NCBI GenBank assembly: GCA_047947115.1
Contig: CP170459.1
Coordinates: 3,840,001-3,904,000 of the forward strand
Source: Verrucomicrobiota bacterium
Lineage (GTDB): Bacteria > Verrucomicrobiota > Verrucomicrobiia > Limisphaerales > AAA164-E04
Length of the DNA: 64,000 bases
Reading direction: 5' to 3'
Shown: positions 8,254 to 61,195 of the stretch, one piece after another
Layout of the letters: every line of letters starts with the position of its first letter
Numbering within the stretch: the first letter of the stretch is position 1
Notes under the pieces: generated by a model
The model's input: only the letters and a program-made list of their open reading frames with translations
The model's database searches: none
What the model was told of the DNA's origin: nothing
Translations under genes and position numbers: made by a program

Positions 8254-8346
8254 GGAGAGATGGCTGAGTGGTCGAAAGCAACGGTTTGCTAAACCGTCGT
8301 CGTGGGATAACTGCGACCGCGGGTTCGAATCCCGCTCTCTCCGCCA
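8254..8346 (+). tRNA. tRNA-Ser(GCT)
   Basis: GGAGAGA/TCTCTCC acceptor stem, anticodon arm ACGGT-TTGCTAA-ACCGT, long variable arm, GGTTCGAATCC T-arm, encoded CCA. Confidence 0.97.
8281..8346 (+). repeat. attL core (3' 66 bp of tRNA-Ser)
   Basis: Identical to 54038-54103. Confidence 0.95.
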
Positions 8347-9673: not shown

Positions 9674-10489
9674 ATGAAGGACGAACTATTGGACCGAAAG
9701 GAGTGGGATTTTACCGATATCCCTACGGATGAACTAGAATCGGCGTGGCAATACGAACTGGCCAGGACTGTAAAATCATGTGTGATGGATCAGGCGGTTT
9801 GTTCTAATAATCTGGCAGGTGATCCGCCGAGGAAACTTGATTTGAATAAGGATGACGATGCTATGCTTTGGTATGAGAACACTGTAGGTTGGTATGATGA
9901 TTGGGCTAGCTCAAACGAAATATCGGCACACACCTACCTCCCTTGGACCAGCTTACCAGCAAAGTATAAAACGAAATACTTGATCGCACACAAAGGGGAA
10001 ATCCCTGCCCACCTAACACATGATCACTGTTATACGATGCCATATTCCAGAACTCTCGTCCACCTGGAATACAACCCCTCCCCAAACTCCCAGGTCCTAC
10101 AAAAAAGACACAATTACTTAAAAGCTCAGGACAGACCAGTCACATCTCTACATTTATTTGAAATCCATTTCCGACGAGGTATCGATAGCCGGAGTTCAAT
10201 GATCAGCGATTTTAAGAAGTTTTTGGAGGAGGAATTTCCTAACATGCCTGATAAAGTTGGTCGCCCTAAGTCCAAGATGCCAGAGTTAACGAACCTCGCA
10301 ATCTTTAGGCTACTCATTCACTATACCCCTGATGAGACAATCAGCAAGATTGCAGGAACCTACTCACAAAGGCGCCGTATCAGTTTGAAAGAGCTGGAAA
10401 AAGCTGAAAAAGCTGTCTGTGCTCAAATGCAGGGATTCTGTAAACCTTACCGAACAAGATTTACTCCAAAGCCCCTGGGCCCGTCTTAG
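9674..10489 (+). CDS. Hypothetical protein (island backbone)
   Basis: 271-aa ORF co-oriented between int and xis; EWDF...WQYELAR N-terminus, GRPK motif. Confidence 0.6.
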   Translation: MKDELLDRKEWDFTDIPTDELESAWQYELARTVKSCVMDQAVCSNNLAGDPPRKLDLNKDDDAMLWYENTVGWYDDWASSNEISAHTYLPWTSLPAKYKTKYLIAHKGEIPAHLTHDHCYTMPYSRTLVHLEYNPSPNSQVLQKRHNYLKAQDRPVTSLHLFEIHFRRGIDSRSSMISDFKKFLEEEFPNMPDKVGRPKSKMPELTNLAIFRLLIHYTPDETISKIAGTYSQRRRISLKELEKAEKAVCAQMQGFCKPYRTRFTPKPLGPS

Positions 10490-10700
10490 CTTAAGTCTCA
10501 AAAGCTGGGATTCCTTGGCGGCCCAAGCCCAATAATGAGTTTCGTTAATGGAACTCGTCTTTTATGATTGCATGCAAAAAGTGTAAACCATTTGTAAACA
10601 ATGGTTAAATCTATCTGTTTAAATTATCTCCCTCCATTAAGTATCGAAGTTTTTCGGAGTATTGCATCAGGGGACCATTGTCATGTTAGCTCCGGGAGAC

Positions 10701-10928
10701 ATGGCAAAAATAAAGAAGCAATCAACCCCAACTGAAGGAGCTCTCCTCACAAGAGAGCAGGTAGCTGCTAGGTTACAGATAACAACCAGGACACTCGATC
10801 TCTGGATCGACGCTCAGAAGATACCCGTCATCAGACTTACCTCTGGTTGTATACGGTTTCAATCTGAAGCCGTTGAAAATTTCATCCAGAAGCACACAAT
10901 TAATGCAAGTTGGGAGTTACCACTATGA
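10701..10928 (+). CDS. Excisionase/AlpA-like helix-turn-helix protein
   Basis: LLTREQVAARLQITTRTLDLWIDAQKIPVIRL..GCIRF; GGGAG RBS before ATG 10701. Confidence 0.85.
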   Translation: MAKIKKQSTPTEGALLTREQVAARLQITTRTLDLWIDAQKIPVIRLTSGCIRFQSEAVENFIQKHTINASWELPL

Positions 10929-11149: not shown

Positions 11150-11746
11150 ATGGATTCAAAAGAATCAAATAACACATTCGCGAACATCGACAAGTTTCGC
11201 ATCACACAAGATTTCGACGATATCAGCGTCGAAACTGCCTATACCCACATCCCGTTGCGTAAACCCGGCAAAACCGAATTCTTTAGAGTTAATCCCTCCG
11301 AGGAATCCCGCGGCCAGTTCCTATTCCTGGATTACAGTGAACCAGGGGCCATGACCAAAGACAAATATTTGATTGTACCAGAGCTGGTGAATCAAATACC
11401 AGATGTCTCGGGTGTGAAAGCCCATTTGGTAGTGACGGCTGTATCCAGACCAGAGAATGCACCGTTTCTTTGGCCGATTCGTTTACCAAACAAGACAATG
11501 TTTGGTCCGGATACTTGGGCTCTCTCCGACCTGGACATATTGAAGAGATCAGAAGAGGAGTGGTTGCGTAAAGAAACGAAAGCCGGGGTTCAAGGCTACA
11601 TGGCCGTCATCAGCAAAGCCGATTGGCCGGAACCCGAATTCCCGAACCTGAGTTTCCAGGAGATGCTCGCTAAAGCCATACCAGAGGAACGAATTATAAA
11701 GGATCAAAGCCACACTGTGATCCGCAAGATTAGAGGGGAAATATGA
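11150..11746 (+). CDS. Hypothetical protein translationally coupled to the DNA polymerase
   Basis: 198 aa, AAGGA RBS, ATGA overlap with the polymerase start; LRKPGKTEFFRV and PFLWPIRLP motifs. Confidence 0.75.
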   Translation: MDSKESNNTFANIDKFRITQDFDDISVETAYTHIPLRKPGKTEFFRVNPSEESRGQFLFLDYSEPGAMTKDKYLIVPELVNQIPDVSGVKAHLVVTAVSRPENAPFLWPIRLPNKTMFGPDTWALSDLDILKRSEEEWLRKETKAGVQGYMAVISKADWPEPEFPNLSFQEMLAKAIPEERIIKDQSHTVIRKIRGEI

Positions 11747-13473
11747 ATCTGGCAGCCTTCAAGGAAATCTGGGTGATTGATTTCGAATACCAATCCCTAC
11801 CGGGTGAGAACCCAGATCCGCATTGCATAGTGGGTTTGGAAACCATCACCGGCAAGTCGATAAGAATGGGTGCAAAGGAACTTCGATCGTCGAAAGTTCC
11901 TCCATTCGGCATCGGCTCAGATTCCCTTGTCGTGGCTTACTACGTGCCAGCCGAGTTCAGTTGTTTTCTGGAACTCGGCTGGCCGTGTCCTGAAAATATT
12001 TTGGATCTTTGCGTAGAATTCAAGTGGCTGAAGTCAGGCGTGGCGGATGGACTCAAACGTGACTTGGTAGCAGCCCTGAAACACTTCCGACTTGATGCGA
12101 CGATCCCAGACGCGAAGGACGAATGGCGGCAACTTGCGATACGGGGAGGGCCGTTTACTACCCCGGAGATGGAAGGACTCATGGATTACTGTGCGGAAGA
12201 CGTATATGCGACGGCGGAGTTGTTGACTAAAATGCAGCCACAAATCGATCTCATCAGAGCTTTAATCAGAGGCTCATATTGCTGGTCTGTGGCCCTTATG
12301 GAACGCGCAGGTGTGCCAGTCGATATGGAGGCTTTGACGTTGTTGTGGGGGCAATGGAGCGCCATACAAAGCGGCCTAATAACCGCAACTGACAAATGGG
12401 AGATCTATGAGGGCAATACCTTCAAACGGGATCGGTTTGAGGCCTTCCTGAGGGATCACAAAATCCAATGGCCGAGGTTGGATTCCGGTCAACTCTGTTT
12501 AAAAGACGAGACATTCAGGCAACAGGCTAAAATCCATCCACGATTGATTGCCCCCTTGCACGAATTACGCACCACTTTGGGTAAACTGAAGTTAAACAGT
12601 TTGGCTGTCGGCAAAGATGGCCGCAACCGTGTGATGTTGTCCCCATTTCAATCAAAGACGGGACGCAACCAACCATCTAATTCCAAGTTCATTTTCGGAC
12701 CTGCTACTTGGATCCGAGGCCTTATAAAACCGGGTGCAGGCCGGGCGATTGCTTATATCGATTGGAGTCAACAGGAGCTTGGAATTGCGGCACGTCTTTC
12801 AGGCGATCGGAATATGATGGAAGCCTACTGTTCAGGGGACCCATACATCACTTTCGCGAGAATGGCGGGTGCTGTGCCGAAGGACGCTACCAAGCAAAGC
12901 CACCCAGCTGAAAGATCGCGATACAAACAGTGTATGCTTGCCGTCCAATACGGCATGGGAGCTGAGAGTTTGGCTCAAACTGCTTGCTTGGCTTTACTGG
13001 ATGCCAAAGTTCTTTTGCAAGCCCACAGGGACGCGTTCCCGGACTATTGGAAGTGGAGCCGACAAATAGAACAACAAGGATTTGGAAACGGGGAACTTCG
13101 ATCAGCGTTCGGTTGGCGTGTCCTTGTTAATTCGGACAGCCGTAGTGCCAGTGTTAAGAACTTCCCCGTCCAAGCCAACGGAGCGGAAATGTTGCGTCTG
13201 GCCATCATGAAAATGCACACGGCAGGGATCGAAGTAATCGCGCCGGTTCATGACGCAGTAATGATTGAGGCGGCTTCTTCTGAAATCGAAACCCATACGG
13301 TGAAGGCGCAAGAGTGCATGAGGTGGGCGAGCGAGCAGATCCTACCAGGATTCCCGCTGGATTCGGACGCAAAGATAGTCAAGTACCCTAACCGGTATAT
13401 GGACGAAGACCGGGGAACTGAAATGTGGAACACGGTCATGGGCATCGCAGGGGGTCCACTATATACCCACTAA
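11743..13473 (+). CDS. Family A DNA polymerase with 3'-5' exonuclease and no 5'-3' exonuclease (mobile-element type)
   Basis: Exo motifs IDFEY and YCAED; SKTGRN; motif A DWSQQELGIAA; motif B RSRYKQCMLAVQYGMG; motif C VHDA. Confidence 0.93.
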   Translation: MNLAAFKEIWVIDFEYQSLPGENPDPHCIVGLETITGKSIRMGAKELRSSKVPPFGIGSDSLVVAYYVPAEFSCFLELGWPCPENILDLCVEFKWLKSGVADGLKRDLVAALKHFRLDATIPDAKDEWRQLAIRGGPFTTPEMEGLMDYCAEDVYATAELLTKMQPQIDLIRALIRGSYCWSVALMERAGVPVDMEALTLLWGQWSAIQSGLITATDKWEIYEGNTFKRDRFEAFLRDHKIQWPRLDSGQLCLKDETFRQQAKIHPRLIAPLHELRTTLGKLKLNSLAVGKDGRNRVMLSPFQSKTGRNQPSNSKFIFGPATWIRGLIKPGAGRAIAYIDWSQQELGIAARLSGDRNMMEAYCSGDPYITFARMAGAVPKDATKQSHPAERSRYKQCMLAVQYGMGAESLAQTACLALLDAKVLLQAHRDAFPDYWKWSRQIEQQGFGNGELRSAFGWRVLVNSDSRSASVKNFPVQANGAEMLRLAIMKMHTAGIEVIAPVHDAVMIEAASSEIETHTVKAQECMRWASEQILPGFPLDSDAKIVKYPNRYMDEDRGTEMWNTVMGIAGGPLYTH

Positions 13474-13587
13474 TATTATTAATTAAGATACAATATAAGA
13501 TATATAATAAGAGGCCTACAGGGTACCCCAAATGGGCAGGGGTGCCCGTCCATTTGGGCAGGGGTGCCCGTCCATTTGGGTAGGGGT
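13471..13587. repeat. Putative replication origin: AT-rich tract plus 22-bp tandem repeats
   Basis: AT-rich 13471-13510; TGGGCAGGGGTGCCCGTCCATT at 13533 and 13555, partial third copy at 13577. Confidence 0.7.
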
Positions 13588-13603
13588 CACTTTTGAAGAG
13601 CAT

Positions 13604-13936
13604 ATGGCTGAGGAGCTATACATTCCAGACTGCATAGAGCAGAGGGGTTCCGGTAAACCTTTTGTCAAAGGGCCCATACCGTTGGATTGGGTGAAAAGTG
13701 CCTGCCAAGCCGGAGCGGCTGAGTTGGCTTGGTATTTGCGGTATAAGGAGGGTCTTGCCAAGTCCAAAACTATCCATATCAGACCGGGGGAGATGAAAGT
13801 CTTTGGTCTGTCTGAGAAAGTTCGAAGGCGGCAGGTGAAAGCTCTGGAGGTCGCTGGGTTAGTGAAAATTATTTCAAGGCCGGGTCAAAGTCACCGGCTT
13901 GTCATTTTGGACTCCCCAAGTGGTGGGGGGCTTTAG
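13604..13936 (+). CDS. Small winged-HTH-like protein (possible origin-binding factor)
   Basis: FVKGPIPLDW...FGLSEKVRRRQVKALEVAGLVKIISRPG wHTH pattern; start placed at ATG 13604 after the repeats. Confidence 0.7.
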   Translation: MAEELYIPDCIEQRGSGKPFVKGPIPLDWVKSACQAGAAELAWYLRYKEGLAKSKTIHIRPGEMKVFGLSEKVRRRQVKALEVAGLVKIISRPGQSHRLVILDSPSGGGL

Positions 13937-18136: not shown

Positions 18137-19717
18137 CCCGGATATTTCATCAAAACCAGAAATACCCACAAATTGGTTTTCATTGTAGCTCAAGGTTGAG
18201 TTTGGAGAGGTCAGACGCACCTTTTTAAGGTTCTTTTCGAATTGAGGATACACTCCCCCAATCCCCCATTGTTTTTCGACGTGCCGGGGCAGCACTCTGG
18301 GCATGTTATCCTGTGTTCAGTTTGGCGTGAATATGTGCAAAGAGTTTTTGATAGGGGTATGCCTGACTCATCAATAATCGAATGCGTCTTGTGTTTTTCA
18401 GGACGATGGTTCCAATTTTGAACAGTTTCAGTCGGATGGTGCTGACCTGGGCTCGAGCCATTTCACTTCCTTTCAATCCAACTCGGCGGATGGTTTCCAT
18501 CAGCACATAGGCAGCACTGCTGAGCAGGAGTCGAAACTGATTGCTCCACCATTTATGACAACTGGTTCGGTCGGCGAATAATCCAAGCTGTTGTTCCTTG
18601 ATGCGGTTTTCCATTTCTCCCCGAGCACAATAAATCTTCTCGTAGATATGCTGGGCATTGCCCGAAAGGTTACTCACCACAAATCTGGGATTGCTGCCCT
18701 GTCGATTATGTTCCGCTTTAATGATCACCATTCTTTCCTGATCCCAGGAATGTGCCTTGTATTGGAGACAGGCAAAGTGGCGTTGTTTTTCACCAGTCTT
18801 TTCAAAGAGAACAGCGGATTCTGAAATAAGGTTTTGTCCTTGTTCAAGCAATCGTGGGTTTTGGGCGATTCCAACAACATACTTCACTTCATGAGGTTCG
18901 CACCAACGCAACATTCTCCAACGACAAAACCCGGAGTCTCCCCGGAAGATGATGCGTACTTTGGTCCATTTTAGGCGCAGGCGTTGAACCAGCAATTTGA
19001 GAATAGCCCATGCATGACGTGCAGGATCAATATTGCTTGGGCGTAGATAACTGACCAAGAGTTGCTCGCCACAAAAGACATAAAGAGGAAGGAAACACCA
19101 GCAATCGTAATACCCGTGAAAACTGCGTCTCTCCTGGCCGCCATGAACTCGATCATCAGTTGCGTCAAAATCCAGAATCAGTTCTTCCGGAGCTTTTTTG
19201 AAAGAGTTGATAAAAGTTTCAATCAAGACTTTCGAAAAATCCATCGCTGTTTGGCGATCTGCCCGAGCTTCAAAGCGACACAAAGTAGGACTGCTGGCAA
19301 GCGAATCAGAACGTTCCACAGCACTTTGAATGAGTGGATCCTTTCGGAGGCAATCGTGATCGTTGAGATCTTCGTATCCCAAGGCCAGGCCGTAAATGCG
19401 TTGACGCAACAAATCGAGAGTGGAATGAGCCGTCCGGCCAGATTGACGAGGATCGGTCATCACCTTGGAAATCGATTTGGTAAGACCAAGTAACCGATCA
19501 GCCTGCCTTAAAAACAAAGCACCACCGTCCGAGGAAATGTGACCACCGCTGAAAGAAGCCTCAATTTTTCGTCGTTCAAGGCTTGGAAACTCAAAAGAAA
19601 TCTGGTTACACTTTGTCATTAGCGGAGTTTTTACTGGTTTTTGTTTCAACACCAACAACCATATGGGATTATCCCAAAAACTTCGCTAATTTTTTTTAAT
19701 TTAATGAAATATCCGGG
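18137..19717 (-). mobile_element. IS1380-family element, copy 1 (1581 bp)
   Basis: Terminal IRs CCCGGATATTTCAT; near-identical to 35998-37578. Confidence 0.92.
18306..19658 (-). CDS. IS1380 transposase
   Basis: ISSDGG, GYEDLNDH, LDFDATD, RGDSGF, RGEMENRIKE. Confidence 0.93.
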   Translation of the reverse strand: MLVLKQKPVKTPLMTKCNQISFEFPSLERRKIEASFSGGHISSDGGALFLRQADRLLGLTKSISKVMTDPRQSGRTAHSTLDLLRQRIYGLALGYEDLNDHDCLRKDPLIQSAVERSDSLASSPTLCRFEARADRQTAMDFSKVLIETFINSFKKAPEELILDFDATDDRVHGGQERRSFHGYYDCWCFLPLYVFCGEQLLVSYLRPSNIDPARHAWAILKLLVQRLRLKWTKVRIIFRGDSGFCRWRMLRWCEPHEVKYVVGIAQNPRLLEQGQNLISESAVLFEKTGEKQRHFACLQYKAHSWDQERMVIIKAEHNRQGSNPRFVVSNLSGNAQHIYEKIYCARGEMENRIKEQQLGLFADRTSCHKWWSNQFRLLLSSAAYVLMETIRRVGLKGSEMARAQVSTIRLKLFKIGTIVLKNTRRIRLLMSQAYPYQKLFAHIHAKLNTG

Positions 19718-35997: not shown

Positions 35998-37578
35998 CCC
36001 GGATATTTCATTAAATTAAAAAAAATTAGCGAAGTTTTTGGGATAATCCCATATGGTTGTTGGTGTTGAAACAAAAACCAGTAAAAACTCCGCTAATGAC
36101 AAACTGTAACCAGATTTCTTTTGAGTTTCCAAGCCTTGAACGACGAAAAATTGAGGCTTCTTTCAGCGGTGGTCACATTTCCTCGGACGGTGGTGCTTTG
36201 TTTTTAAGGCAGGCTGATCGGTTACTTGGTCTTACCAAATCGATTTCCAAGGTGATGACCGATCCTCGTCAATCTGGCCGGACGGCTCATTCCACTCTCG
36301 ATTTGTTGCGTCAACGCATTTACGGCCTGGCCTTGGGATACGAAGATCTCAACGATCACGATTGCCTCCGAAAGGATCCACTCATTCAAAGTGCTGTGGA
36401 ACGTTCTGATTCGCTTGCCAGCAGTCCTACTTTGTGTCGCTTTGAAGCTCGGGCAGATCGCCAAACAGCGATGGATTTTTCGAAAGTCTTGATTGAAACT
36501 TTTATCAACTCTTTCAAAAAAGCTCCGGAAGAACTGATTCTGGATTTTGACGCAACTGATGATCGAGTTCATGGCGGCCAGGAGAGACGCAGTTTTCACG
36601 GGTATTACGATTGCTGGTGTTTCCTTCCTCTTTATGTCTTTTGTGGCGAGCAACTCTTGGTCAGTTATCTACGCCCAAGCAATATTGATCCTGCACGTCA
36701 TGCATGGGCTATTCTCAAATTGCTGGTTCAACGCCTGCGCCTAAAATGGACCAAAGTACGCATCATCTTCCGGGGAGACTCCGGGTTTTGTCGTTGGAGA
36801 ATGTTGCGTTGGTGCGAACCTCATGAAGTGAAGTATGTTGTTGGAATCGCCCAAAACCCACGATTGCTTGAACAAGGACAAAACCTTATTTCAGAATCCG
36901 CTGTTCTCTTTGAAAAGACTGGTGAAAAACAACGCCACTTTGCCTGTCTCCAATACAAGGCACATTCCTGGGATCAGGAAAGAATGGTGATCATTAAAGC
37001 GGAACATAATCGACAGGGCAGCAATCCCAGATTTGTGGTGAGTAACCTTTCGGGCAATGCCCAGCATATCTACGAGAAGATTTATTGTGCTCGGGGAGAA
37101 ATGGAAAACCGCATCAAGGAACAACAGCTTGGATTATTCGCCGACCGAACCAGTTGTCATAAATGGTGGAGCAATCAGTTTCGACTCCTGCTCAGCAGTG
37201 CTGCCTATGTGCTGATGGAAACCATCCGCCGAGTTGGATTGAAAGGAAGTGAAATGGCTCGAGCCCAGGTCAGCACCATCCGACTGAAACTGTTCAAAAT
37301 TGGAACCATCGTCCTGAAAAACACAAGACGCATTCGATTATTGATGAGTCAGGCATACCCCTATCAAAAACTCTTTGCACATATTCACGCCAAACTGAAC
37401 ACAGGATAACATGCCCAGAGTGCTGCCCCGGCACGTCGAAAAACAATGGGGGATTGGGGGAGTGTATCCTCAATTCGAAAAGAACCTTAAAAAGGTGCGT
37501 CTGACCTCTCCAAACTCAACCTTGAGCTACAATGAAAACCAATTTGTGGGTATTTCTGGTTTTGATGAAATATCCGGG
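35998..37578 (+). mobile_element. IS1380-family element, copy 2 (1581 bp, CTAA target duplication)
   Basis: Same IRs as copy 1; CTAA on both flanks. Confidence 0.93.
36057..37409 (+). CDS. IS1380 transposase
   Basis: Differs from copy 1 at one visible residue (K/N near the N-terminus). Confidence 0.93.
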   Translation: MLVLKQKPVKTPLMTNCNQISFEFPSLERRKIEASFSGGHISSDGGALFLRQADRLLGLTKSISKVMTDPRQSGRTAHSTLDLLRQRIYGLALGYEDLNDHDCLRKDPLIQSAVERSDSLASSPTLCRFEARADRQTAMDFSKVLIETFINSFKKAPEELILDFDATDDRVHGGQERRSFHGYYDCWCFLPLYVFCGEQLLVSYLRPSNIDPARHAWAILKLLVQRLRLKWTKVRIIFRGDSGFCRWRMLRWCEPHEVKYVVGIAQNPRLLEQGQNLISESAVLFEKTGEKQRHFACLQYKAHSWDQERMVIIKAEHNRQGSNPRFVVSNLSGNAQHIYEKIYCARGEMENRIKEQQLGLFADRTSCHKWWSNQFRLLLSSAAYVLMETIRRVGLKGSEMARAQVSTIRLKLFKIGTIVLKNTRRIRLLMSQAYPYQKLFAHIHAKLNTG

Positions 37579-37675: not shown

Positions 37676-39199
37676 TCATTCGATGCAGTTCAGGAATCTC
37701 AGACTGTCGTCTCGAATGGCATTTTTTTTCTCATCATTCATGCGGTCAAATGTTTTATACATCATGCTGATACGATGGTTGGATCGGAGTTTTTCCCGGT
37801 TGCGATCCAGAAAATCCCAATAGAGATAATTGAAGGGACAAGCATCAGGCCCATTCTTCTTCGACACCTTGTAACTGCAATGCTTGCAGTAATCAGACAT
37901 CTTGTTGATATAGCTGCCTCCCGCAGCGTATGGTTTGCTGGCTAGGTAACCTCCATCTGCGAATAACACCATGCCGGAGACATTGGGGAGCTCCACCCAT
38001 TCGTAGGCATCTGCATAAACAATCAAAAACCATTCGTTCACGTATTTTGGATCAATCCCCGCCAATAATGCAAAATTACCCAGCACCATCAAACGTTGAA
38101 TATGATGAGCATATGCGTGCTGTATGGTCTCTGAAATACACTGATGCAGGCAGTTCATCTGAGTCTTGGAAGTCCAGAAAAATTCTGGCAAAGGGCGTGT
38201 GACTTCAAAGAAGTTTTTTTGCGCGTAATCAGGCATCTTGAGCCAGTAGATACCTCGCACATACTCCCGCCAGCCGATGATTTGTCGAATAAAGCCCTCG
38301 ACAGCATTCAGGGGCGCTTTCCCTGATAGATAAGCAGCTTCGGCGGCCCTTGCGCATTCCAAAGGCAACAACAAACCGCAATTCAGGTAAAAGCTGATAT
38401 GAGAGTGATACATCCAGGGTTCACCTTCTATCATGGCATCCTGATAGTCGCCAAAAGAAGCAAGACGTTCTTTGATAAATAAATTGAGTACCTTGAGAGC
38501 ATCCTCACGTGTAACCGCAAAATAAAAGGGTTCCAGGTCACCAAAATGATTATTAAAACGTTCTGCAACAGCATGCATCACCTCCTGTGTAATGAAATCT
38601 ATCTGCCCCATAAAAGGAGGCGGCACTTTTAATCTGGTTTTGGGTGGCTTGCGGTTTTCGGTATCGTAATTCCACTGTCCTCCAACCGGTTCACTTTGCT
38701 GCATGAGAATGTCGTATTTCCTTCGCATCTCTCGATAAAAATACTCCATTCGTAACTGCTTGCGCCCCTTACTCCACGCCTCAAAATTTTCAAGCGAACA
38801 TAAGAAACGGTCATCAGCTCGAATCTCGACAGGAAGACCAAAAGCCAGTTGCCATTGCAGCATGTCCTGCAATACTCGGTATTCCCCGGGATAGGTAACA
38901 ACAAGGCGCTTAATGTCATGCTTCTTGAGGATGCGCTCGATTTCTCCTTGGAAAGACCCCGCATTTTCCTCATCGTCGATTTTGGTATACTCTACCTTGT
39001 AATTCTGCCTCATTAATTCCTCCGCGAAATGGCGCATGGCTGAAAAGAGAAAGGCAATTTTCTTCTTGTGATGTTTGACATAAGTAGCCTCATTCCAAAC
39101 TTCACACATTAAAATGATGTCTCGAGACGAGTCGCACCCATCCAAGCTAGATATCGAATCTGAAAGCTGATCCCCGAGGATCAAACGAAGTGTGCTCAT
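37676..39199 (-). CDS. Cryptochrome/photolyase-related protein (DPRP / FeS-type (6-4) photolyase class)
   Basis: LILGDQL, HHKKKI, RMEYFYREMR, YAHHIQRLM, MSDYCKHC...ACPFN FeS cysteines. Confidence 0.92.
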   Translation of the reverse strand: MSTLRLILGDQLSDSISSLDGCDSSRDIILMCEVWNEATYVKHHKKKIAFLFSAMRHFAEELMRQNYKVEYTKIDDEENAGSFQGEIERILKKHDIKRLVVTYPGEYRVLQDMLQWQLAFGLPVEIRADDRFLCSLENFEAWSKGRKQLRMEYFYREMRRKYDILMQQSEPVGGQWNYDTENRKPPKTRLKVPPPFMGQIDFITQEVMHAVAERFNNHFGDLEPFYFAVTREDALKVLNLFIKERLASFGDYQDAMIEGEPWMYHSHISFYLNCGLLLPLECARAAEAAYLSGKAPLNAVEGFIRQIIGWREYVRGIYWLKMPDYAQKNFFEVTRPLPEFFWTSKTQMNCLHQCISETIQHAYAHHIQRLMVLGNFALLAGIDPKYVNEWFLIVYADAYEWVELPNVSGMVLFADGGYLASKPYAAGGSYINKMSDYCKHCSYKVSKKNGPDACPFNYLYWDFLDRNREKLRSNHRISMMYKTFDRMNDEKKNAIRDDSLRFLNCIE

Positions 39200-40710
39200 A
39201 AAGGCAGTTCCTCTTGCTGGCTGATGTTTTTTGTATGACGGTTTAGGTTTCTACGGCGGCTGGATTTGCGGCTTCCATGTTTGTTGACGATTTTCTGCGA
39301 GCTATCTAGATGTGTTTTGTTATTTTTCCTGAGGCTATAAAGCTTGCTTGCGGCTGCTTTTCGCCCGTCTTTTTCGTCGATGACTGGCATGGGATAATTG
39401 CCCATCTGTGATTTGGCCAGCCATGGTGTATGAATGAAGGCGTGATCCATTCCCCGCAGTTCAGTTACCCAACGACGAATAAAACTTCCTCGAGGATCGT
39501 GATCAATGCCTTGCTTGACAGGGTTGTAGATACGGATGGTGTTGATTCCTGTCGTACCGGACTGCATTTGCACCTGAGCGTAGTGGATGCCGGGTTCGTA
39601 GTCGGTGAAAAGTTTGGCCAAGTGCAGCGCAGGCCTGCGCCAGTGGAGCCATAGATGGTAACTCGCAAAACTCATGACCATGGCACGCATGCGGAAATTG
39701 AGCCAACCTGTAGATCTCAGCGCTCGCATGCAGGCATCCACCATTGGGTAACCCGTTTTGCCTGCTTTCCACGCTTCAAAAAGTGCCTCATTGAAATCAT
39801 GTTCTCTCAAACCATCATAAGCGGGGTGCATGTTTTCAAATTCAATGCGTGATTCGTCTTCAAGCTTTTGTATAAAATGGCAGTGCCAACGGAGCCTGCT
39901 TGAAAAAGAACGAAGGGCACTCGGCCATTTGCCTTTCATGCCAGGACGCATTTGCTTGATTTCCTGAAGGCGGTGTTCGCATGCGTGCGAAACTTCACGT
40001 ATTGAAACCGTTCCGAATGCCAGGTGTGTGGATAAACGTGAACAGCTTTGAAATGCTGTAACTGGCGAAGACATCTCCTGCGTGTAACCCTCTCCTCGCT
40101 CATGGAGAAAGTTATGGAGTAATTTCAGCGCTTTCTTACGACCTCCTTTTTGCAACTCTGTGAAAGCATCCGTCTCCATACCCAGTTCATCAGCATCAGG
40201 CAGTGATTCTGAATGTTCTTCGATACTTTTGAGCGACTCTGGAGGCGCAATGATAGGCTTTTTCATCCGTCCGTACCATTTTGATGCCCAGCCATCACGG
40301 CCGCTCAAGCGACGAATGACACCATTTTGACAGGGCTCATGCCACGGGATATTCCTGTCATGACACCATTGCTTGACCATCTTATCCCGTTCATAAGTCC
40401 AACCATTCCAAGTCTCCTGATGCGACCAAAGTGCCTGTATGTCGAGGTGCTGATGGAGCTTCTCCAATACGTCAATCGCATTGCCTTTTTTGATGATAAG
40501 TTTTTGCCCGGTCGCCTGCAGTGACTTATTGAGCTCACAAAGGCAATCTTTCAAAAATGCGAGATGCCGCCGACTCATGTCGGGTTCTTTCCAAAGCTCT
40601 GGTTCGAAAATATAAAGGGGTAAAACAGGACCTAATCTTGAGGCTTCAGCCAAAGCTTCATGGTCTGCGATCCGCAAATCCCGCTTGAACCAAACAATGT
40701 TTATTCCCAT
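39196..40710 (-). CDS. Deoxyribodipyrimidine photolyase-family FAD-binding protein
   Basis: VWFKRDLRIADH, SRLSTHLAFG, GWLNFRMRAM, DYEPGIH; start at MGINIV. Confidence 0.9.
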   Translation of the reverse strand: MGINIVWFKRDLRIADHEALAEASRLGPVLPLYIFEPELWKEPDMSRRHLAFLKDCLCELNKSLQATGQKLIIKKGNAIDVLEKLHQHLDIQALWSHQETWNGWTYERDKMVKQWCHDRNIPWHEPCQNGVIRRLSGRDGWASKWYGRMKKPIIAPPESLKSIEEHSESLPDADELGMETDAFTELQKGGRKKALKLLHNFLHERGEGYTQEMSSPVTAFQSCSRLSTHLAFGTVSIREVSHACEHRLQEIKQMRPGMKGKWPSALRSFSSRLRWHCHFIQKLEDESRIEFENMHPAYDGLREHDFNEALFEAWKAGKTGYPMVDACMRALRSTGWLNFRMRAMVMSFASYHLWLHWRRPALHLAKLFTDYEPGIHYAQVQMQSGTTGINTIRIYNPVKQGIDHDPRGSFIRRWVTELRGMDHAFIHTPWLAKSQMGNYPMPVIDEKDGRKAAASKLYSLRKNNKTHLDSSQKIVNKHGSRKSSRRRNLNRHTKNISQQEELPL

Positions 40711-40942
40711 GTTTCGTAAAGTGCTTGTTGATATTTGACCGATTGCTTTCTCCTGTGCTTGGCTATGCGACCCGATACTCGTTTTCGCCACAAACGAAAG
40801 CTGGATGGTTTCAGGAAACGTCTCATGATCGAGATGGTCTCGGGTTCAGTCGAGCCTGTGAGTGCTTGAATGTCGTCAAAGGAGTTTTGTCACACCAAGC
40901 CATTTGAACGATTTCATTAATTTCTATCATGTCTTTATTCAT
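40701..40942 (-). pseudogene. TIGR03643/DUF2805-family small protein with a 1-nt frameshift
   Basis: IVQMAWCDKT in one frame, then FDDIQ...IMRRFLKPSSFRLWRKRVSGR in another; break near 40880. Confidence 0.75.
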
Positions 40943-54037: not shown

Positions 54038-54103
54038 ACGGTTTGCTAAACCGTCGTCGTGGGATAACTGCGACCGCGGGTTCGAATCCCGCTCTCTCCG
54101 CCA
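54038..54103 (+). repeat. attR (duplicated 3' end of tRNA-Ser)
   Basis: Perfect 66-bp copy of 8281-8346; the tRNA 5' part is absent. Confidence 0.95.
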
Positions 54104-59550: not shown

Positions 59551-61195
59551 CACGGCTTTTTTCTCGGCGAGTCTTTCTTGTTGATAATAAAGGGAATCAA
59601 TTTTTGCTAGACTCAATTGCCTGATTTTGCCATGGTAGTCGGGTATGAGCAGCTCTGAAAACCTCATCTCAAAACAGCAAATTAGGGTTCAAGTCCTTTC
59701 CCCCAATCAGCGGAGTCGATTTAACCAACTCTTAACAAAGCACCATTATTTGGGGACAACTCCGCCAGTTGGCGACTTCATTGAACAGGTTGTCCTGTGT
59801 GATGGTAAGTGGGCGGCTTTGCTGATCTGGGGACCAGCTGCACTCAAGCTTAAGGATCGAGAACGGTGGATTGGTTGGAATCCTCTACAACGAGCCGAAC
59901 GCTTAAAACTGGTGGTTCAAAACAGACGCTTTCTACTTCTCCACAAAAAGGGAACTCAACCACATCTCGCTTCCCGAGCACTCGCAGCAGCCTGCAAGCA
60001 TTTACCTGCGCAATGGCATGAACGGTTTGGATATCGCCCCCTGATCGCAGAAACATTCACCGATCCTGAACAGTTCCAGGGCACTTGCTATAAAGCCAGT
60101 GGATGGGACGCTGTAGGCATGAGTCAGGGGAGTCGCAGAGACCATGTCGATTTCTATGTCGATGAAAAACACCCCAAGCGTCTTTGGCTTAAAGAAATTT
60201 GTCCCAAAGCTCAAAAAATCATTACATCCTCGCAACTGCCGCAGCAATTCACTGAGGCTACAGTAGCCGCAGCCAATGGCATCCTCCCATTGCCACCGGC
60301 CTCTCAGCGCAGTCTTTTTGAAACATTTCAAAAAGTCAAAGATCCCCGTCGTTCCAACAATCGTTTTCCTATCGGATCGGTGCTCACCCTCATTGCCATG
60401 GCTTTGTTGAGCGGCGCTAAACAGATTTCCGAGATCGCTCGTTTCGCTCAGCGATTGCGCTCCAACCAACGTGCCCAGCTCAGGCTGCCACTCAAACGAG
60501 GAACTCGTCGTTTCTATCAAGTTCCCAGCTACAGTGTTTTTTATCAATTATTTACCCGCATCGATCCCGAAGAGTTCGCCAGCATGTTGAGCGACTGGCT
60601 CACGCAAGATGAAGGGCATCGTCCAGGAGTGCTGGCCTTGGATGGAAAAATGATTCGTGATGTCATCGGCACCGTCACGCTGGCCAATGTGGAAGATGGT
60701 TCCCCAAGGGCTATGACCATCATGGATCAAAAGGAAGACACTGATAGATGCGAACTCAAAGCAGCACAAGAACTGCTCAAGGCTCAGCCCAGTTTAGATG
60801 GAGTCACAGTGACAGCGGATCCATTGCATTGTCAAAAACAGAGCGCACGTATCATCGCCGAAAAGTGAGTCAAGAAACGCGCTACTACTTTTTCCAGTCA
60901 CTATGATTTTGAACGCAGCAGTGAAGAATGGATCAACTTAATTCGCCAACACTGGGCTGGAGTGGAAAGCCGCAGCCATTGGCGACGGGATGCGACCATA
61001 GGAGAGGATCGCACTCGGCTGAATAATCCAAATGCGCTGGCTAACCTGGCATTGATCCGCAATCTCAACCTCCATGTTCTGGCAAGGCAGTCTTGGGATG
61101 GTTGGTTGCCTGGTTTGATTGAAAGATTGATCTCCAATCCTGCAGAAACTTTAAACATGCACAAAGCGTGCTAACCCTTAAAACAAAAAACCGTG
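59551..61195 (+). mobile_element. ISAs1-family element with a 10-bp target duplication
   Basis: IRs CACGG(C/T)TTTTT; ATTTCCAGAA at 59541-59550 and 61196-61205. Confidence 0.88.
59645..61174 (+). pseudogene. DUF4338-ISAs1 transposase fusion, internally deleted
   Basis: HHYLG...ETFTDP..F.GTCYKASGW (DUF4338-like); DPRR, LDGK, TADPLHCQ; stop at 60868, then RQHW.GVE...WRRD...ED in another frame. Confidence 0.8.

Follow-up and report, generated by a model that had tools for sequence, protein, structure and literature searches.

On SCCmec (staphylococcal cassette chromosome mec), the family A polymerase CcPol primes only when bound to the oligonucleotide/oligosaccharide-binding (OB)-fold protein MP and prefers the origin repeats, which are also bound by a helicase (PMC7581432). 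Rice reported 17 cases of primases consisting of PolA and a single-strand-binding protein (SSB), all in Bacillota and all with a helicase (Rice 2023, PMC10061031). According to Czernecki et al. 2023 (PMC10201439), CHEAP is the subfamily closest to CcPol; a purified member is an efficient polymerase on primed templates with strong proofreading, and CHEAPs are described there as cellular auxiliary polymerases with "no known partners". The family B polymerase of pipolins, piPolB, primes alone and displaces a strand without a helicase or primase and without sequence preference (Redrejo-Rodriguez 2017, PMC5695915). Here, we analyzed a window of 64,000 nucleotides from a Verrucomicrobiota bacterium (assembly GCA_047947115.1, contig CP170459.1, positions 3,840,001 to 3,904,000), in which a tRNA-integrated island carries a conserved set consisting of a proofreading DNA polymerase, a predicted SSB, a DNA-binding protein of small size, and a repeat cassette that resembles an origin. 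Integrating elements share these three genes and the cassette as a conserved unit, whose likely role is to replicate the element once it has been excised.

The polymerase matches PF00476 (E 1.3e-24) as well as Klenow-type structures. Because it starts directly at the 3'-5' exonuclease motif (D13-x-E15), it has no 5'-3' exonuclease. Among 44 aligned homologs, the exonuclease residues D13, E15, D88, and Y149 (44/44) and D153 (43/44), the polymerase residues D340, R391, K395, H503, and D504 (44/44) and Y403 (43/44), and Leu at motif position B3 (L399, 44/44) are kept, in agreement with a first-pass annotation of this DNA, which had listed intact exonuclease and polymerase motifs and no 5'-3' exonuclease. 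The ratio of nonsynonymous to synonymous substitution rates (dN/dS) of 0.095 against the related locus L017 indicates that the gene is under purifying selection. The closest named homolog (84%) is labelled Verrucomicrobia. The host keeps its own Pol I as a separate 937-aa frame near genome position 3.54 Mb; in an alignment with this enzyme, the last thumb helix region of the island polymerase is 5 residues shorter, which is not a specific feature. In a comparison made by eye, without formal clustering, with the first 400 residues of the Ideonella dechloratans CHEAP reference in the supplement of Czernecki et al., 72 of 109 residues are identical without gaps (residues 289-397). Since it is close to this reference, has intact exonuclease and polymerase motifs, and carries Leu at B3, we file the enzyme by its sequence as a CHEAP (cluster 15).

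The gene upstream of the polymerase encodes an accessory protein of 198 aa. Both open reading frames (ORFs) were found where the first-pass annotation had placed them, and the ATGA overlap it described is present, but the two genes are coupled rather than fused. The accessory protein has no family in Pfam (0/149 aligned members), PHROGs, NCBIfam, PDB sequences, or ESM Atlas features. Its fold matches in two libraries, all with weak scores, are mostly to OB folds and SSBs, and it is predicted to be a gp32-like/OB-fold SSB; of the earlier suggestion of an SSB/processivity or priming partner, it is the SSB-like fold that these matches favor. The model offered by the ESM Atlas itself had a predicted local distance difference test (pLDDT) score of only 0.29, and its structure matches were disregarded. 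The gene has a dN/dS of 0.23 (against L016), and its family comprises 4,415 clusters at 50% identity. Tandem pairs of accessory-family genes precede the polymerase gene in L030:417-1723, L058:1-659, and L072:2180-3419.

The small protein downstream of the polymerase had been annotated as a winged-helix (wHTH) gene after the repeat tract. Its start had been set at 13532, which we rejected; the start codons of close homologs make 13604 the most likely start of the protein. The window copy itself matches no family; among 80 aligned members of its family, there are matches to MarR_2 (12), GntR (5), and HTH_36 (3). The family profile matches GntR/FadR winged-helix structures (E about 1e-3). By these profile matches, the protein is assigned to the winged-helix proteins, and its position makes it a candidate initiator. 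Its dN/dS is 0.19 (against L017).

Related loci were collected from metagenomes (the best 80 of 558 confirmed), IMG/VR (47 loci, of which 24 have this polymerase subfamily), and GTDB genomes; a single-protein search of genome contigs returned one locus. Removal of 19 redundant or flank-only loci and of all polymerases below 300 bits left 117 loci, which were merged at 90% identity into 105, including the window and its paralog. Profiles of the accessory protein and the wHTH protein were built iteratively on the same loci. The accessory gene lies upstream of the polymerase gene in 83 of the 84 loci with enough upstream DNA, and a wHTH gene lies downstream in 85/95. Of the 53 loci whose flank extends for 6 kb or more, 37 have a recombinase no further than 6.5 kb away, and a tRNA is present in 28/105. 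The synteny beside integrases and tRNAs that the first-pass annotation had proposed to look for is thus present. The occurrence is patchy: the polymerase is found in 4/301 genomes of the host phylum and in 7/301 genomes of the phylum of a planctomycete.

Direct repeats bound the module-bearing elements L098 (9.6 kb), L151 (10.2 kb), L027 (11.7 kb), and L001 (14.3 kb), and L117, a circular contig of 8.3 kb with a 127-bp terminal repeat, encodes int, the module, HNH, terS, and terL. In satellite-like loci, the module sits between int/xis and the packaging genes. Terminase genes are present in 13 of the 22 non-redundant loci from IMG/VR, a collection that favors packaging genes, and several of these loci also have portal and capsid genes. 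Loci with a terminase after the module, in some cases also with portal and capsid genes, are L098, L100, L102-L106, L108, L109, L112-L115, and L117. Among annotated phages, there was one distant match only.

The host genome contains a second module in an island of about 39.5 kb at tRNA-Leu(CAG) (G000:C1:2602853-2642426; L015, L165, and L166). This module has diverged (PolA 59%, accessory protein 35%, and wHTH protein 46%) and has four 22-bp repeats with a sequence unlike that in the window. The tRNA-Leu island has an extra 209-aa tyrosine recombinase directly after the wHTH gene, and its main integrase is at the far end.

As the first-pass annotation had noted, an origin-like repeat tract lies right after the polymerase gene. 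A 42-bp tract of about 10% GC adjoins the stop codon, and the score of the 22-bp repeats beyond it was reached by 0/40 shuffles (p 0.024). Over 99 loci, the mean lowest 30-nt GC is 0.26 after the polymerase gene versus 0.41 inside it. Repeats with a period of 21-25 follow the gene at p<=0.05 in 50/99 loci (40 shuffles per locus), compared with 10/99 for periods of 27-31 and 12/99 further downstream. The repeat sequences differ among clades, also between the two elements of the host genome; iterons differ in sequence in the same way between relatives. Between the repeats and the AT-rich tract is a conserved, strand-specific junction (consensus about ACCCGT(A/C)C..TCTTAT). We trained a matrix on 24 loci in forward orientation that do not belong to the window's clade; its best match lay near the end of the polymerase gene in 45 of 81 untrained loci, where about 17 were expected, and a few of these 45 matches are low-scoring or inside that gene. 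The junction of the window is the best match in its first 30 kb and falls below the 17-bit cut of the genome scan, and that of the paralog is the top match of the whole 6.08-Mb genome (23.6 bits). Priming at a hairpin, as suggested earlier, was rejected, as only short palindromes occur in and beside the repeats and no long hairpin that could serve as a primer was found.

The position of the cassette bears on the question of whether the set replicates circles at all. The polymerase and its partner might instead serve in second-strand synthesis after transfer, gap filling at integration, repair, or defence, with the cassette acting as the operator/promoter of an autoregulated wHTH gene. Several points count for this alternative and against a replication module: Rice names second-strand synthesis and defence as options for PolA-SSB pairs (PMC10061031), members of the wHTH family resemble MarR/GntR regulators, and the commonest position of the cassette is just before the wHTH gene. 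Moreover, a search of plasmids found no close PolA (18 distant PolAs at 23-29%) and no accessory homolog. However, the whole cassette is inverted in the window's clade, including the strand-specific junction, and lies behind the wHTH gene in others, with clear repeats and a tract in 7 of 21 loci examined there (L105, L108, L109, L113, L114, L115, and L158), a weaker version in about 3, and nothing in the rest. A sigma-70-like promoter was looked for in the AT-rich tract and not found, although this test is weak, and in satellite-like elements that have packaging genes, the module fills the slot for replication. A plain promoter-operator role of the repeats was rejected; the three placements of the cassette (forward, inverted, and downstream) fit an origin better than a promoter. 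We consider a role outside circle replication improbable, and a replication module with an iteron origin probable.

A variant of the cassette region occurs in the high-GC loci L102, L103, L104, L116, and L118, in which the wHTH gene was undetected and 9-bp repeats, or a degenerate form of them, follow the polymerase gene. A common conserved sequence comes next in L102, L103, and L118, L103 and L104 have in common an unrelated ORF of 85-93 aa, and several of these loci carry packaging genes. This variant is possibly another initiator type.

The first-pass annotation had recognized no primase, helicase, relaxase, or Rep in the island, and a Pfam scan of 42 large and 5 small ORFs of the window gave the same result. 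No real ORF of the island has a Walker A motif; only two such patterns were found, both in shadow frames. Among the neighbors, 171 ORFs were selected (at least 190 aa, within 3.5 kb, one per cluster, with known recombinase and terminase clusters excluded), and the nearest 136 of these contained no primase or replicative helicase family in Pfam. Helicase-type domains were limited to L042, where the protein is a Cas3, and L081, where it is a subunit of a type I restriction enzyme, and the other ATPases are BrxL, a Mg-chelatase-like protein, and one AAA protein. RepA (PF10134) occurs once, in L041, at a distance of about 2 kb from the module, and a 764-aa Walker A protein of L154, outside the scanned set, is on the far side of a tRNA. 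No primase or replicative helicase was found with PHROGs among 74 ORFs mostly from viral loci, or with Pfam among 64 further ORFs taken from islands and bounded elements; L098, L151, L027, L001, and L117 all carry the module without either enzyme. A divergent enzyme may be present in single loci, where many neighboring ORFs have no family, but none recurs as a cluster.

These relatives also bear on the view that the loci have no present function, either as passengers or as what is left of elements whose primase-helicase was lost. Some module copies are indeed broken by stops or frameshifts (e.g., L040, L085, L114, and L151) and the island is full of insertion sequences, both of which favor this view. 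However, no bounded element has a helicase or primase, the family consists of thousands of diverged clusters, the motifs are intact, and dN/dS is 0.1-0.2. A routinely linked enzyme that was lost only here, which the first-pass annotation had named as grounds for giving up its proposal, is not seen in the relatives. Helicase loss was accordingly rejected, and this view is largely refuted, with very little probability left to it.

In our proposal, the 22-bp repeats would be the binding sites of the wHTH protein, which would also melt the AT-rich tract, and the strand set free there would be held by the predicted SSB. The CHEAP polymerase and the SSB, which may bind each other, would then prime de novo at the junction motif, and the excised circle, lacking its own helicase and primase, would be copied by SSB-assisted strand displacement. 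Family A polymerases are capable of strand displacement. This mechanism is the simplest reading of a module with the polymerase subfamily nearest to CcPol, an SSB-like partner, repeats placed as in SCCmec, and a winged-helix protein in the helicase slot. The strong rival is an iteron replicon that borrows the host helicase and primase: the wHTH protein would open the origin and recruit DnaB/DnaG, or a transcript would prime, and CHEAP and SSB would only extend. Its origin anatomy would be identical. Iteron plasmids and lambdoid phages rely on host DnaB/DnaG, which adds to its weight. Self-priming is further challenged by the CHEAP study, which demonstrates primer extension and proofreading by the enzyme rather than priming (PMC10201439). 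On the other hand, elements that load the host replisome would hardly need their own polymerase and SSB, yet this pair is kept in 83/84 loci under purifying selection; a wHTH protein of about 110 aa would leave little room for a helicase-loading domain; and CcPol, the nearest characterised relative, primes with an OB-fold partner. We regard host priming as rather unlikely on balance, and a fully self-priming, helicase-free mechanism as evenly poised between true and false.

A broader proposal, which we put forward tentatively and at slightly under an even chance, is that CHEAPs serve as replicases instead of being cellular auxiliaries, and that the integrating elements and phage satellites they copy form a very large class that has no name yet. 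CHEAPs would be part of a new three-protein replicon, in which a small winged-helix initiator, a gp32-like SSB, and a self-priming, proofreading PolA act at a defined origin by strand displacement and need neither the element nor the host to provide a helicase or primase, as a family A counterpart of pipolins. The first-pass annotation had already suggested a self-replicating PolA counterpart of pipolins; the synteny, the lack of a linked helicase, and the origin-like tract are in its favor, but the likeness to pipolins is in lifestyle only.

The features of the window are listed below. The predicted island of about 46 kb proved to be 45,757 bp, bounded by a 66-bp direct repeat. Its size is mostly cargo, and bounded relatives measure 8-14 kb.

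Features of the tRNA-Ser island in the window (positions refer to the 64,000-nucleotide stretch)
Feature	Position	Strand	Basis or remark
tRNA-Ser(GCT), integration target	8254..8346	+	last 66 bp (8281-8346) = left attachment (att) repeat
Tyrosine integrase, 381 aa	8473..9618	+	PF00589, E 1.3e-8
271-aa ORF between int and xis, outside conserved core	9674..10489	+	no Pfam, PHROG, or NCBIfam family
Excisionase-like HTH protein	10662..10928	+	HTH_17, E 9.7e-7 (Pfam); phrog_66 excisionase, E 7.6e-8
Accessory protein, 198 aa, predicted gp32-like/OB-fold SSB	11150..11746	+	fold matches
Family A DNA polymerase, 576 aa, filed as CHEAP subfamily; 3'-5' exonuclease + polymerase, Leu at B3	11743..13473	+	
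AT-rich tract, candidate unwinding element	13471..13512	.	sequence; low GC after PolA across loci
Conserved junction motif, candidate priming or melting site	13500..13526	-	matrix match, 13.4 bits
22-bp direct repeats, 2.8 copies, candidate iterons	13528..13588	.	
Winged-helix DNA-binding protein, 110 aa, candidate initiator	13604..13936	+	family profile; position
Right att repeat	54038..54103	+	66-bp copy of tRNA 3' end

The order of int and then xis before the module, as first annotated, is correct except that the 271-aa ORF separates them. This ORF has a single homolog (30%) elsewhere in the same genome, and the same slot in many relatives is occupied by unrelated ORFs of 200-350 aa without a known family. 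Among the contigs of four public runs, no excision joint was found, and the compared stretch could not span both att ends. The labels of public runs in which this stretch occurs are seawater, salt marsh, and estuary. In G602, the closest relative, which is of the same genus, no empty site was seen because a different, distantly related integrase follows the same tRNA-Ser (L160:3254-4010), and this suggests that the site is an integration hotspot. Further integrase homologs in G000:C1, near 4657, 342330, 355281, 2340712, 2494853, and 4538711, have no polymerase module, and most of them adjoin tRNA or tmRNA genes.

The remaining cargo in Pfam includes a sulfatase, kinases, photolyases, large surface proteins, and many insertion sequences. 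A pair of 450-aa DDE_Tnp_1_4 transposases with equal Pfam scores and opposite orientation (18306-19658 and 36057-37409) flanks a block of genes for a kinase, an extracytoplasmic function (ECF) sigma factor, and surface proteins, and a photolyase-related protein and a DNA photolyase are encoded at 37676-40791. An ORF at 59645-60868 of the window has DruA and transposase-associated domains. It behaves as an insertion sequence, because a 90%-identical copy splits the 89-aa ORF after the wHTH gene in the 98%-identical locus L016 (L016:12260-13574).

Published work already covers both the polymerase subfamily and the idea of PolA-SSB pairs. In a literature search, mostly of open-access text, we did not find the helicase-free four-part module, the origin-like cassette, its place in satellite-like elements, or mobile CHEAPs; the closest literature found was the papers on CcPol, PolA-SSB, CHEAP, TV-Pol, and pipolins only. 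If true, the proposal would supply a polymerase subfamily that has already been purified and is highly active with both a role and partners, and CHEAPs would count as "mobile" instead of "cellular". The start of DNA chains by a family A polymerase becomes open to testing, in a case where the proofreading domain is complete, the partner is named, and a candidate origin is mapped. The family is large and includes satellite-like elements that would be missed by searches keyed to primase-helicases, and the module could supply a minimal replicon or an enzyme for primer-free amplification.

Compared with the known systems, the polymerase resembles CHEAPs in its length (about 580 aa), its exonuclease and polymerase domains, Leu at B3, and its presence in addition to Pol I. 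Unlike in the published description, the polymerases here are element-borne, and a pair of conserved partner genes accompanies them together with a cassette in cis. With CcPol-MP-Cch2 and the PolA-SSB primases, the module has in common a family A polymerase without a 5'-3' exonuclease on an integrating element with a recombinase, and with CcPol-MP also a small partner gene (a beta-barrel in CcPol-MP, predicted SSB-like here) and repeats just downstream of the operon. However, the published order is Pol-SSB-helicase, whereas here it is SSB-like protein, Pol, origin, and wHTH protein without a helicase; the recombinases are mostly tyrosine integrases instead of mostly serine recombinases; and the partner is larger and closest to gp32, with hosts that include Verrucomicrobia and Planctomycetes. 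TV-Pols are likewise PolA-related enzymes on mobile elements, proposed to prime and extend (Iyer 2008, PMC2579912), but they are defined by linkage to D5-like helicases (PMC2579912), none of which was found in the window or the scanned neighbor ORFs.

Phage-inducible chromosomal islands (PICIs), capsid-forming PICIs (cf-PICIs), and P4-like satellites carry primase-helicase replication genes together with packaging or capsid-related genes. The satellite-like loci follow the same plan of int, an xis-like HTH gene, a replication block, and then terminase, portal, and capsid genes, but the module replaces the primase-helicase. No packaging or capsid-related genes were found in the window island with Pfam, while relatives such as L098, L108, and L117 have packaging genes. 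Finally, pipolins and the elements described here are both tRNA-integrated, have no recognisable primase, and combine their own proofreading polymerase with variable cargo; in pipolins, the family B enzyme piPolB is the only conserved replication protein, whereas the elements described here have a family A polymerase with two conserved partners and a conserved cassette.
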